A DNA stretch of 64,000 bases, taken from assembly GCA_963693365.1 (NCBI GenBank), contig CAVNZM010000003.1:8786046-8850045 (forward strand), read 5' to 3'. The notes under the pieces are model-generated. The model did not search any database, was not told where the DNA came from, and saw nothing but the letters and a program-made list of their open reading frames with translations. Source of the DNA: Amoebidium appalachense (lineage: Eukaryota > Protista > Ichthyosporea). Positions 23,014 through 50,900 of this stretch are shown here, piece after piece (position 1 is the first letter of the stretch; the number at the start of each line of letters is the position of its first letter). The position numbers were made by a program, and so were the translations under genes.

Positions 23014-26000
23014 ATGAACGGCCCAAGGATGCAAACAAGGAGGAAAACGCAACGCCCCAAAAGGGGTGATTCGTCCTCCCCAGCCCCGGCAGTTTCCCCT
23101 ATACCCAGTTTTGTGCAAACCTCCACGAAGCCTCTCTTTGGCCTTGACAATCTATCGGACGACCTTTTAGCACACATACTGAATATGGTAGTGTGGGCCC
23201 GTGTGTCCCCTCTGGAGCAGGTGTGTAACGACTCCCCCCCCCCCCCCCCCCCCCCCCCCCCCCCCCCCTCGCCCTACCTTCCCGCCATCCCCCCCCCCCC
23301 CCCCTTTACGACACCCAGTCGCTCCCCCCCCCCCCTCCCCCCTTTCTAACTATCCTCCCCTTAGATTCCTCCCCCCCCCCCCCCCCCCCCCCCGCCCCAA
23401 CACACACACACACAGAGGACCTTCTTCCGCTTTCATCTGTGTGATTTTTGCAGGAAATTGAAAACGTGTGATGTGTAAACGGTGTGTGCACTTTCGCTGC
23501 TCTTTGCCTTGCACATCTCCGGTGACTGACCATCATGATAAATGGCCAAATCTGCCTCCAGGCCTTCCTAATCTGCGGTCCATGCCAGCACTGAACCCTC
23601 CCGTGTTGACCTAGACACACACATCGAAGCTTATCACATCCCCTTCCCCCCCCTGTGAAGTTGCCCCCAACTCTGCCCATTCCCCTTCCCTCCCCGTCCC
23701 TATATCCCCCCCCCCCCCCCCCTCCCCGTCCCCTCCCGCCATCTCTTTTCCATCTCTCTCTTTCCTTCCTCTTCCTCTTCCCCTCCCCCCCCCTCCCCCC
23801 CTATCTCCCGCTCTCTCTCTGTATCTCTCGCTCTCTCTCTCTGTCTCCCCCCCCCCCCTCCATCTCCCACTCTCTCTCTCTCCCCCCCCCTCCCTCTCCC
23901 TCTCTTTCTCTCTCTCTGTTTCTCTTTCCCCCGTCTTCTCTTCTCCCAGACCGCTTTACTTCCATGCAACCGGGCATGGTTGCTATGTGTCGTGCATCTG
24001 TAAGCACATGCGCTTTTTTCGCTGCACTGCATTAGTTTGCACACACATCTTCACCGTTTTGCTCACCTTGCTTGCTTAAGCAACCCTGCTCGTCTTTGAT
24101 CAAGACGGGTTGACCCTCCCAAGTTCAGTTGATGCTGCTGTCTAAGTTGGAGAGTCGTATATATGCGGGCTAAGGGGTCGAAACTCAGACGCAATTGATG
24201 ATTTGGGCCCTCCCTGAGGATGGGCTCTGCTTATGACGCATATTGTGTGTATGGCTGATGTTGCATACTTGAATGTTTGCCTTTGCATGTGTCCTTCGTG
24301 TATGCGTACTTCGTACCGTGTTCCGCATTCAACCCCCCCCCCCCCCCCTCCCCCCTTCCTCCTCCCTGTTTCCCCTCTTTCTTTCTCTCTCTCTCCCTCC
24401 ACCCTCCCCCCCCCCCCCTTCTGCCCCCCCCCCCCCCCCCCCCCCCAACCCGTACCCACCCACCCTCGTTTCCCCCTTCCCCACCCGCCCTGCGTGTAAT
24501 GAACACAAGAATCACTACCACCACCACACTCACTCCGCTATAGGAATCCTTTTTGTAGATGCTGTATTCTGTTCGATTCTTAATGCCTGTTTACTTTTAC
24601 GCCTGTGGCCTACCCCCCTCCCCCCCCCCCCCCTCCCCCCTCCCTCTCTCAACCCCCCCTTTTCCCCTCCGCCCCCCTTACAACCAGAAAGATTGCAACA
24701 CACACACACACACACACACACACACACACACACACACACACACACACACACACACACACACACACACACACACACACACACACACACACACACACACACA
24801 AACACACACACGTACACACACACACACACAGTCACAAACACAACCCTATACACACACCCTACACACACACATCCCCCCCCCCCCCCCCCCCCCCCCCCCA
24901 CACACAAATTCCTATACACACACACACACACACACACACACACACACACACACACACACACACACACACACACACACACACACACACACACACACACACA
25001 CACACACACACACACACACACACACACACACACACACACACACACACACACACACACATGCAGACGAGGTCATACCTGTGGCAGGGAGTACAGGGGCTTG
25101 CCGCTATCCGTAGATGCAAAGACTTACGGCTAGTGTGCAAGCGGTTCGATAAGATCGTGAGGGCACATGTGAAGGCACTGCTTGTGTTTGGGAGGAACAA
25201 CGTGCAGAGGTGGGTGCGTGGCTGCTAGAAAGCACGCCTCTGGGGGGGAGGGAGGGGGGAGGGGGAGTGGAGGGGGAGAGAGGGGGGGGGGGGAGGGAAG
25301 GGGAGAGAGAGGGGGGGGGGGAGGGGATTGAGGGGGAGAGAGAGAGAGAGGGGGGGGGGGGGAGGGGGAGAGAGGGACTGAAGCGGGCGCCGGGTGGGGG
25401 GGGGGGGGGGGGTCTGGGTTTGCATTGCGGGGATGGATGTGATGACGGGGTGTTGGGTGTGAAGAATAAGGTTCATTTTTCAGCGGAAGGTTGGAGAATA
25501 ATCGGATGATGATGCATGGGTGGGTGACGTAACGTGTCGGTTTTGTTTGTTTGTTTTTCTGATCTTTTCTTTCTGTTACTTGTTCAGGTCTTTTGTGCTG
25601 GGTTGTGGTTGTGTGTGTGTGTGTTTGTGTGTGTGTTTGTTTGTGTGTGTGTGTGTGTGTGTGTGTGTGTGTGTTTGTTTGGGGTGGGGATGGAGGGGGG
25701 GGAGCTTACATGGGCTTCAGATATAACAAGGGGTTTGCGTCGGGCTGCGGTGGTGGTCAAGAAGGAGGAGGGAGGGGGAGGGGGTGCCGGGGGGAAGAGA
25801 GAGAGAGAGGGAGGGAGGGAGGGAGGGAGTGGGAGAGAGAGAGAGAGAGTGTGTGTGTATGTTGTTGAGCAGTGTTGTAGTATTGAATCAGTACAAGTGA
25901 GAGTGAGAATTTTAGACGGTTTTTTATTTCAAAAAATTTGCTTTTTTGCTTTTCTTTTTCTTTTTTTGTTGTTGTTGTTGTTTGGCAGGGGGGGAGAGGG

Positions 26001-47900: not shown

Positions 47901-50900
47901 GCGTGCGTGCATGTGTGTGTGTGTGCGTGTGTGCGTGAATGCATGCATGTGCGGGCGTGTGCATGAGTATGAGTGTGTGTGTGCGAGGGCGCAAGTGTGT
48001 CTGTGGGAGGGGGGGGGGGGGGGGGGTTAGGGGGTTGGAAACAATACATACCTTTGAAGCGAGCAACAAACATTCGCGATGCGTCTGCAGCCGACATGGG
48101 GGTATCGGAGACTGCAGGCACACACAGTCAGTGGCCTAGAACGCAAACATAAATCCAATTTGCAATGAAAATGTATGCCCGTCCTGCCTGCCTTTATCCA
48201 CACGCCAATTTGGTCGTTGGCACAAGTTACAAAAGTAAACAGATGTAATGTAGGCACGAAATATGCACGCACGCACGCACGCGCGCACGCACACACGCAC
48301 GCCCACATACCTACACACACACACGTGTGTGTGTGCTTTATATACGTGTATGTTTTATATAAGTAATGCAAGAGCCACCCCTTTACAACGAACTCATCTG
48401 CGATGTTAGCATAGTAGGGGCAAGGGTTGTGAGCACCAAGTAGAAGGATTGTGCCCGACTCGGCATCGGCAATTCGTATGCACTTTTCTTGGTTGCATGG
48501 AAAAGGCAGGGAGGGGGAGGGGAGAGGTTGGGTGGGGGGGGGAGGGGGGGGGGGAGGAGCGGGAGAGCGGGAGAGAGGGAGGCCTGAGAAATGGCAACCC
48601 TGAAATCTAAGACATATGACACTGGCAAAAAGGAAGGGGGGGGGAAATAAAGAAGAAGAAAAGAAAAAGAAAAGAAAAAAAGAAACCAATTGGGTAGGAG
48701 TGGACCCGTGAAACGAGCCCATTCTTTTGTGGTGGGGGGGGGGGGGGGGGGGGGGGGGGGGGGGGGGGGGGGTTACTGAGAGGTTCCCGCATAGCCTGAG
48801 ATTCACTGACGGAAGTTTTCTGGACTTGTGTGGTGAAGCCATCATCATCACTGTAATACTCCATATCGGACTGTGTGTGTGTACGTGTGTGTGTGTGTGT
48901 GTGTGTGTGTGTGTGTGTGTGTGTGTGTGTGTGTGTGTGTGTGTATGTGTGCGTGTGTGCGTGTGCGCGCGGGTACGCGTGCACGTGCGTGCTTGTGTAT
49001 GTGTGTGTGTGTTTGCGTGTGCGTGTGCGTGCGCGCGCGTGAGCATGTGTATGTGTGCTTGTGTATATGTGCATCCAAGTGAGTTTTTCGTTAACTTTAA
49101 TTTTTTTATTTTTTTTTCTTTTGGGGGGGGGGGGGGGGGGGGGGGGGGGGGGGGGGGGGGAGGGATCTATGGTCGTAACCCCGCTCCTCTTCCACATGCA
49201 CTATGCCCCTTCAAGAGGAAGACCTAAGCAATAAGGGAAAACAGACAAATGTACTTTTTCTTTTTTTGGGGGGGGGGGAGGGGGGGGGGGGGGGGTTTGA
49301 ATGCGGAACACGGTACGAAGCACGCATACACGACGAGAAGCATGGTGCAGGACACATGCAAAGGCAAACATTCAAGTATGCAACATCAGCCATGTGCACA
49401 GTATGCGTCATAAGCAGAGCCCATCCTCAGGGAGGACCCAAGTCCTCAATTGCGTCTGAGTTTCGACCCCTTAGCCCGCGTATATACGACGCTCCAACTC
49501 AGACAGCAGCATCAACTGAACTTGGGCGGGTCAACCCGTCTTGATCAGAGACGAGCAGGGTTGCTTATGCAAGCAAGGTGAGCAAAACGGTGAATATGTG
49601 TGTGCAAACTAAAGCAGTGCAGCGAAAAATGCGTATGTGCTTACAGATGCACGACACAGAGCAACCATGCCCGGTTGCATGAAGTAAAGCGGTCTGGGGG
49701 GAGGTGGGGGGCTTACGTCTTCGCTGTTAAGACCGTCTGAATCGGAGTTGTAGAAGGCTCTCTGTGGTTTAGCTGCATGCGTGTGTGTGTGTGTGTGTGT
49801 GTGTGTGTGTGTGTGTGTGTGTGTGTGTGTGTGTGTGTGTGTGTGTGTGTGTGTGTGTGTGTGTGTGTGTGTGTGTGTGTGTGTGTGTGTGTGTGTGTGT
49901 GTGTGTGTGTGTGTGTGTGTGTGTGCGTTGTGTTTTTGTGTGCGTGTCTGTGGGTGGGTGGGTGGGTGGTTGAGTGGGTGACGGCTCGAGAGAGCTGGCG
50001 CAGGAGCATTGCTGTGGGTAGAAGGATGGGTGTACATGTGCATATATTTTGTACGTCATCAGCGATGGTATGTGGTTGTGTGTGTGTGTGTGTGTGTGTG
50101 TGTGTGTGTGTGTTTTCGCGTGCGGCTGCGTGCGTCTGTGCGCGCGCACGAGTATATGTGTGTAAATGTGTGTCTGTGTGTCTGTGTGGGTGGTGTGGGT
50201 GAACCCACCCCCTCCTTGCCCCTTTCTTGCTTTCTTTTTTTCTTTCTTTCTTTTTTTCTTTTTTTTTTTTTTTTTTTGGGGGGGGGGGGGGGGGGGGGGG
50301 GGGGGGTTGAATGCGGAACACGTTACGAAGTACGCATACACGAAGGACACATGCAAAGGCAAACATTCAAGTATGCAACATCAGCCATGCGCACAGTATG
50401 CGTCATAAGCAGAGCCCATCCTCAGGGAGGGCCCAAGTCATCAATTGCGTCTGAGTTTCGACCCCTTAGCCCGCGTATATACGACTCTCCAACTCAGACA
50501 GCATCATCAACTGAACTTGGGAGGGTCAACCCGTCTTGATTAAAGACGAGCAGGGTTGCTTATGCAAGCAAGGTGAGCAAAACGGTGAATATGTGTGTGC
50601 AAACTAATGCAGTGCAGCGGAAAATGCGTATGTGCTTACAGGTGCACGACACAGAGCAACCATGCCCGGTTGCATGGAAGTAAAGGGGGGTTACATGAGA
50701 ATGTCCCTGAGGCTGTGTTCTGGAGCCCATCGTCGTCATCGGCACCCTCACTAATCAGCATTAGGGTCTCACTGGCTGGCAGCTTGAGAGATCCGATTGT
50801 GGCCTGAGTACCAATGGAATCGCACAATTAGATTGATAAAATACTCACCTTTCCCGAGGACAAACACTTTGATCCTCCCCAAAAATTTGCCCGTGCGCCC

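Follow-up and report, generated by a model that had tools for sequence, protein, structure and literature searches.

In a stretch of 64,000 nucleotides from the ichthyosporean Amoebidium appalachense (contig CAVNZM010000003.1, positions 8,786,046 to 8,850,045; hereafter the window), a sequence of about 385 bp recurs in the introns of two genes, with its end on runs of C. What kind of element is it, and what places it there? A first-pass annotation had proposed either a recently active non-autonomous retroelement targeting poly(C) or a mobile intronic non-coding RNA (ncRNA). The first of these is supported by the 3' ends that the copies have in common, by 5' truncations, by flanking C-runs and by a very high abundance. 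With a probability of roughly 0.6, we read the element as a non-autonomous retroelement whose RNA, drawn from host transcripts, is inserted at C-tracts by an enzyme like that of Chlamys-type Penelope-like elements (PLEs), and which carries a hammerhead-derived core. The hammerhead-like core and the sister families described below had been overlooked in the first reading.

Young copies of the element

Five copies form the young family. Copy 31464..31848 on the plus strand serves as reference, so that element position p is window position 31463+p.

23949..24332, plus strand: young full-length copy in intron 1 of the plus-strand gene (leucine-rich); the most decayed, with G196A breaking the predicted helix III
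31464..31848, plus strand: young full-length copy, the reference (self-comparison)
49297..49694, minus strand: young full-length copy in the UBX/FAF1-type gene, starting about 23 nt downstream of a donor and carrying a 15-nt insertion
50307..50685, minus strand: young copy that begins about 10 nt downstream of a donor and lacks the first 5 nt
5956..6087, minus strand: 5'-truncated young copy with the 15-nt insertion, starting at element position 260-268, between convergent genes

Comparison of the window with itself recovered these coordinates and strands as they had been annotated. Pairwise identity among the four long copies is 95.0-98.4%, and the 15-nt insertion is common to the 5956 and 49297 copies. 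Two long copies lie in the plus-strand gene and two in the minus-strand gene, all four in sense orientation, and two begin close to a donor (about 10 and 23 nt downstream). Terminal inverted repeats (TIRs) and coding capacity are absent, the longest open reading frame (ORF) with an ATG being of 62 amino acids. The plus-strand host gene (23015-33440) is leucine-rich by eye and received no Pfam name, and the minus-strand gene has UBA, FAF1 and UBX domains. Gene models here are exon-sized frames with AG/GT limits and are predicted from sequence only.

At the 3' side, every young long copy adjoins a C-run, with 0-1 extra letter between (4/4). The fragment 5956-6087 agrees with the annotation in strand and position, but its 3' end reads CATTCAA, a G and then a C-run, and it lies between two convergent genes and in no shown intron. 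The annotation also had every copy start in a C-run. This holds for the 31464 copy alone, which follows a long C-run, while the other 5' flanks are less uniform: a CT tract ending in CCCA for 23949, C6A for 49297 and C6 for 50307.

Older relatives and sister families

The five copies are present as described, but the family is larger by 12 partial or diverged relatives within the window. A profile search with the 3' part of the element returned 13 members at E<0.001, six of which are the sequences that built the model, as against no match in the reversed window. Outside these 13 stand 26664-26802 and 46900-47060, obtained by another comparison, and 47480-47660, found by eye. A weak match at 32559-32620 (E 0.19) is excluded from all counts. 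The relatives include the following.

41441..41647, minus strand: older copy of a sister family, from element position 157 to a sister-type 3' end (E 2e-47)
26664..26802, plus strand: older relative covering element positions 124-258, with the 3' part missing (E 1.7e-15)
31258..31354, plus strand: older 5'-truncated relative, separated by 110 nt from the 31464 copy, which lies downstream of it (E 2.8e-05)
46195..46462, minus strand: a pair of older sister-type 3' ends, truncated at the 5' side and lying in the same intron, at 46196-46289 and 46368-46460 (E 7e-08 and 1e-05), both model-building sequences
46900..47857, minus strand: five older relatives in one intron, at 46900-47060 (with CUGAUGA), 47157-47251, 47307-47389, 47480-47660 (by eye only) and 47774-47857
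55246..55323, minus strand: older 5'-truncated relative in intron 2 of the minus-strand gene (E 4.6e-05)

Reading of the flanks reveals that 11 of the 12 partial relatives retain a 3' end on a C-run, and that 8 of the 12 start at element positions 260-285. A 3'-anchored truncation series without TIRs, long terminal repeat (LTR) ends or an ORF is the footprint of target-primed reverse transcription, and we infer that the series seen here has this origin.

Contigs from sequencing runs diverge from the element at positions 118 and 296, where they have loose ends, and one run (X17) provides a 776-nt contig of a sister type. The sister families have only the core, positions 117-295, in common with the young family; their 5' and 3' parts differ. 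The minus-strand relatives at 46900-47060 and 47480-47660 belong to a second sister family. Its 3' end is different, but the tail is again a C-run, and traces of the 3' edge of the core survive.

Abundance in Amoebidium

The element was found in 20 of the 22 sequencing runs listed, under six organism labels. On the 611-base stretch 49165-49775, four runs gave 12,757, 3,826, 4,411 and 6 contigs, and the contig depth is nearly confined to the element. In run X5, summed contig depth, which is no copy number, exceeds 1 million on the element, whereas the exon flank has 28 and another flank 101. The A. appalachense assembly is given as 202 Mb in the preprint of the Amoebidium genome paper. With four copies in 64 kb, thousands of genomic copies would be expected in an assembly of this size. 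Family depth is also high in run X18, which is RNA by guess only and in which a discrete RNA and pre-mRNA are not distinguishable. An exact 27-nt pattern of the element found no locus in metagenome and viral contigs.

A hammerhead-like core

The annotation had described a sequence that folds into many hairpins. The stems it listed are present, but folding of the whole element is at chance level (z 0.01 in sense and 0.39 in antisense against shuffles), and sliding windows along the element reach nothing beyond z -1.7. The core, with bounds picked afterwards, folds at z -2.1 (5 of 200 shuffles). The features of the core are listed below on the reference copy.

31580..31758, plus strand: structured core (element 117-295), common to the sister families, delimited by contig loose ends, the X17 contig and z -2.1
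31655..31667, plus strand: predicted strand of helix III, then the GUU triplet with the predicted cut after 31663, then a strand of helix I
31690..31705, plus strand: predicted strand of helix II, with C11.1 as its last nucleotide, followed by the GAAA box and the partner strand of helix III
31725..31736, plus strand: predicted partner strand of helix I, followed by the CUGANGA box, here with N=G, and a single extra U
31627..31631, plus strand: GACCY strand able to pair with 31690-31694, a pseudoknot and candidate helix II with G10.1-C11.1; a compensatory C-G to U-A change in the sister contig was spotted after seeing the data
31644..31716, plus strand: tandem G.A/A.G/U.U motif (31644-31647 with 31712-31715) with a 3-nt bulge, read from sequence

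The GUU at element positions 198-200 adjoins a helix of 8-9 pairs with the strand that runs from the last A of GAAA (232-235). Positions 201-204 would form a helix of 4 pairs with the strand preceding CUGAGGA (266-272), and C231 can pair with a G. A candidate helix II with G10.1-C11.1 would have 2 pairs after the extra U, or 5 pairs with 164-168 if two helices are looped out after A9. Measured against the hammerhead core consensus, every conserved position is present and in register with helices I and III and the candidate helix II. The order of the parts is UH, GAAA, CUGANGA, which is non-nested, helices I and II crossing helix III. The tandem G.A motif of the young family would fit a kink-turn; its bulge is absent from the sister family.

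Stems of 9, 4 and 2 pairs occur in three of the four long young copies and of 3, 4 and 2 in the 23949 copy. Among 10,000 shuffled strands none reaches 5, 4 and 2, three reach a sum of 14 and 112 reach 3, 3 and 1. Neither strand of the window, nor either of two mirror controls, holds anything else that reaches 5, 4 and 2. Compared with the 41441 copy, the single sister contig from X17 has GAAA and C231 restored and CUGAGGA kept. By eye, it differs from the young family by four double-sided pair changes (174-255, 192-242, 203-263 and 168-227) in four helices, and by two further changes from U-A to U-G among 23 pairs. The 46900 relative alters just the free position of its box (CUGAUGA), and the common polymorphisms of the young family within the core, at 148, 169, 205 and 260, fall outside the boxes and helices I and III.

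These patterns suggest that the core is under selection as a folded RNA, and it is best read as a hammerhead-derived module with a rewired strand order. That it is a working hammerhead of new topology, with non-nested strands and acting as a rewired monomer or a dimer, is a more tentative prediction, which we hold to be possible but on balance doubtful. In such a fold the long helix III rod would fold back at the kink-turn or dock head-to-tail on a second molecule, and both strands at the base of the rod would then pair into its apical loop. The core might cut in the folded-back monomer or in the dimer, or it may now serve just as a signal for binding the helper. Two of 15 shown contig joints end within 2 nt of the predicted cut, which is too weak to count.

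Searches for a known RNA family were negative. Rfam gave no match at gathering score over the whole window. Over 31200-31900 there were two matches, at a chance level of E 9.3, and no hammerhead at E<=10; the order of the core's parts is not that of a nested junction of type I, II or III. The 56 matches at E<=5 over 41400-50800 include no ribozyme, signal recognition particle (SRP) RNA or tRNA family, and all lie outside the two young copies and the 41441 copy. Resemblances to hepatitis delta virus (HDV)-like ribozymes and to SRP/Alu RNA have no Rfam support. A local nested hammerhead in the apical loop was rejected, that stretch differing between the young and sister families.

Another explanation would be a DNA-based non-autonomous element, Helitron-like or MITE-like (miniature inverted-repeat transposable element), whose hairpins would act as single-stranded DNA. 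A short hairpin near the 3' end and insertion into a homopolymer without visible target site duplication (TSD) fit such an element. However, there are neither TIRs nor the TC..CTRR ends of Helitrons, truncation is graded at the 5' side while the 3' ends are intact, and the pairs kept through G-U and the one-strand tandem G.A point to RNA. We regard a DNA-based element as very unlikely.

A proposed helper of the Chlamys type

Under the retroelement reading, intronic copies would be transcribed along with host pre-mRNA; a full-length transcript of RNA polymerase III (Pol III) is disfavoured because of the internal TTTT runs. The helper would nick the G strand of a C-tract and reverse transcribe from the fixed 3' end. 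Synthesis would often halt at element positions 260-285, the 3' edge of the structured core, with C-rich microhomology, and many short 3' stumps would therefore arise. PLEs are able to begin reverse transcription at an internal point of the RNA (PMC11167929), and fixed 3' ends would then be possible.

Chlamys-type PLEs insert at (C)n or (CA)n microsatellites, and the Chlamys elements that target (C)n have non-autonomous derivatives (PMC8557442). Insertions of Chlamys-9/N4 in Chlamydomonas are 5'-truncated, with a median of 128 bp, and all intronic, consistent with a (C)n target (PMC9977147). The Amoebidium element appears to behave like these Chlamys-N elements (Chlamys-9/Chlamys-N4 of Chlamydomonas reinhardtii; PMC8557442, PMC9977147). 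Both have a (C)n target that brings them into introns, are non-coding, leave no readable TSD and are frequently 5'-truncated to about 100-130 bp. It differs in its ichthyosporean host, outside the published Chlamys range as PMC8557442 gives it, and in having hammerhead parts in scrambled order; no pseudo-LTR (pLTR) or helper was seen. The annotation had called the element unnamed. In Rfam and in the literature searched we indeed found no name for it and no description of it or of such a hammerhead topology, but its behaviour matches the (C)n-targeting, intronic, 5'-truncated kind already described. Neither Penelope nor SINE (short interspersed nuclear element) is mentioned in the available text of the Amoebidium genome paper (PMC11244446).

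The repeats of PLEs typically carry hammerheads, many of which have G10.1-C11.1 and an additional nucleotide separating 9 from 10.1 (Cervera and de la Pena 2014, PMC4209133), and the link to PLEs is reported also in PMC6765202. The Amoebidium core resembles the hammerheads described in PMC4209133 in its CUGANGA and GAAA boxes, in the additional nucleotide, in a candidate G10.1-C11.1 pair, in a long helix III as in fungal and protist variants, and in possible action as a dimer. However, those described there are of nested type I, whereas the Amoebidium core has the order UH, GAAA, CUGANGA with a U at position 17, and its dimer would not use a palindromic helix III.

The helper could instead be a long interspersed nuclear element (LINE), the element being SINE-like or derived from the 3' untranslated region of a C-tract-specific LINE. 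Truncation at the 5' side with fixed 3' ends is a hallmark of LINEs too, and the element shows both. The window contains an ORF for a LINE-type reverse transcriptase (RT), about 500 nt of the 776-nt sister contig precede the core, and motifs like an A box (at 191) and a B box (at 228) occur with one mismatch each. However, the boxes lie mid-element behind TTTT runs, a tRNA scan is empty at a threshold of 90%, and the two look-alikes pair together as helix III, with compensations. The element has no similarity to the LINE of the window or its 3' repeat (best E 3.6), and hammerheads pair with PLEs where HDV-like ribozymes pair with LINEs (PMC4209133). A LINE helper is thus possible but clearly the less probable choice; we prefer a PLE because of the (C)n target, the link between hammerheads and PLEs, and the missing similarity to the local LINE.

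Several observations weigh against the PLE-driven retroelement with a hammerhead-derived core. The window holds no PLE protein or ORF that could be the helper, and neither a pLTR nor a tandem; we found no literature on PLEs in ichthyosporeans. Contigs bridge no empty site, so mobility is inferred, and TSDs are unreadable in a homopolymer. Head-to-tail joints in contigs of runs X5 and X7 may be assembly paths through poly(C). Most Chlamys elements, as described in PMC8557442, are without canonical hammerheads. As for the core, the hammerhead descriptor and the 164-168 pairing were defined post hoc, with the motifs already seen. Pair counts on six window sequences are not above shuffles (346 of 500 reach the score), and one pair of the 23 (204-262) is broken in the sister contig. 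The U at cleavage position 17 can merely pair with A14, closing a hairpin. The geometry of a monomer is doubtful, as the two basal strands of the rod would have to contact the apical loop, for which a sharp bend or a second molecule is needed. Neither end of any window copy falls at the predicted cut.

The head-to-tail joints of X5 and X7 would fit PLE tandems, but also a retrozyme-like cycle, in which tandem or circular RNA arises by hammerhead cleavage and ligation and is copied by a borrowed RT. The size range of animal non-LTR retrozymes covers that of this element, hammerhead parts are present, and a contig from X17 links the 3' end to the 5' start via about 54 letters, at a depth of 16 against 36 for the body. 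However, a node of 31 C with a short 5' extension would yield the same path of about 54 letters, and the window holds only monomers, whose fixed ends lie at a distance from the predicted cut. The retrozymes described in 10.64898/2026.07.22.740005 are likewise small, non-coding, ribozyme-bearing repeats with a proposed PLE link. They form intergenic tandem arrays and are reported as depleted from introns, whereas the Amoebidium copies are dispersed intronic monomers with fixed ends. We consider a retrozyme-like cycle improbable.

Known repeat classes, among them the SINE, MITE and solo LTR whose match the annotation had set as refuting its reading, do not account for it. Like tRNA-derived SINEs it is short, non-coding and 3'-anchored, but its look-alike boxes are weak and sit mid-element behind Pol III terminators (TTTT at 67 and 109), it has no tRNA fold, and its tail is poly(C), not A-rich. 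Relaxed tRNA calls are inconsistent among copies. The ends, GACC and TCAA, are not complementary as a MITE would have them. They are not the TG..CA of a solo LTR, and the LTR element of the window gives no match. Ends and flanks also do not fit the 5' TC, 3' CTRR and AT insertion of Helitrons.

Orientation and nearness to donors

Each of the 15 genic copies counted reads in the sense of its host gene. For such a bias the annotation had offered two possible sources, the skew of C-tracts and biogenesis from intron-derived RNA. Sense C-tracts outnumber G-tracts by 24 to 19 in the plus-strand gene and by 45 to 8 in the minus-strand gene. Given this skew, an all-sense outcome has a chance probability of 0.22 for the four young copies, 0.065 with one copy per intron and 0.016 for the 15 genic copies. 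The skew therefore accounts for most of the bias, and the excess is borderline. That excess (p 0.016-0.065) leaves room for a strand-specific step, which counts against the PLE-driven reading, and intron-derived biogenesis may contribute to the bias. Nearness to donors is to be expected because 16 of 30 introns (one boundary uncertain) have a C-run of at least 5 within 25 nt of the donor. Under the PLE-driven reading, intron location, sense orientation and nearness to donors would thus follow mostly from where the C-tracts are.

Introns in 23220-56333 consist of polarised blocks, in which C-runs go together with (CA)n, or G-runs with (TG)n. The C-runs often stand directly after the donor, and many are followed by an A-run.

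Uniform orientation, 15 of 15, would also fit an intronic ncRNA gene family with a host function, similar to small nucleolar RNAs and spread by retroposition, as would the C/D-like kink-turn motif of the young family. However, there are thousands of contigs, the older copies are decayed, Rfam has no match, the kink bulge is missing in the sister family, and orientation is mostly explained by skew. We found no evidence in these data for the host function implied by the ncRNA option of the first-pass annotation, and we rate it the least probable of the explanations considered.

Other features of the window

Two further mobile elements were seen. At 56854-60000 (minus strand) lies the LINE-type RT ORF of 802 codons (57185-59593), which, along 59% of its length, is 99% identical to a protein of Amoebidium parasiticum. 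It is flanked by two direct repeats of 430 bp (56854-57281 and 59577-60000; 94.5% alike) that take in the end of the ORF together with a (CA)n tract, an internal poly(A) and another 170 bases or so; for a LINE, this is the layout of a partial tandem and resembles a pLTR. In the LTR element at 13576-16764, two LTRs of 633 bp (97.8% alike) enclose a gag-like ORF, whose end is protease-like, and a short remnant similar to RNase H; no RT was seen, and this is likely an internally deleted copia-type element.

Among the genes, an intronless ORF of 522 codons at 20137-21705 (minus strand) has a PARP catalytic domain and then a weak Deltex C-terminal domain. An exon at 36619-37410 (plus strand) of an intron-bearing gene encodes a Gfo/Idh/MocA oxidoreductase; its named matches are all bacterial, at 33-40% identity, and an old horizontal transfer is possible. 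A secreted or membrane mucin-like ORF with internal repeats at 7160-8270 (minus strand) is split into two frames near 7700, by a frameshift or an assembly error. The window also contains a near-perfect palindrome of 177 bp (9924-10100) and tandem repeats at 12653-13065 (units of about 100 bp) and 40448-40709 (units of about 30 bp).

Implications

If our reading is true, the (C)n-targeting, intron-filling habit of green-algal Chlamys elements extends to a close relative of animals. If the core is moreover a working rewired hammerhead, which we hold to be less probable, every nested descriptor would miss it, and it would free from host introns the RNA of a Penelope-type parasite that targets poly(C). 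Should the core cleave, hammerhead connectivity outside types I-III exists and current searches undercount such ribozymes. The element also offers a marker for comparisons between strains. In Amoebidium itself, an active core could cut thousands of pre-mRNAs, and the sense intronic copies would then bear on host splicing.

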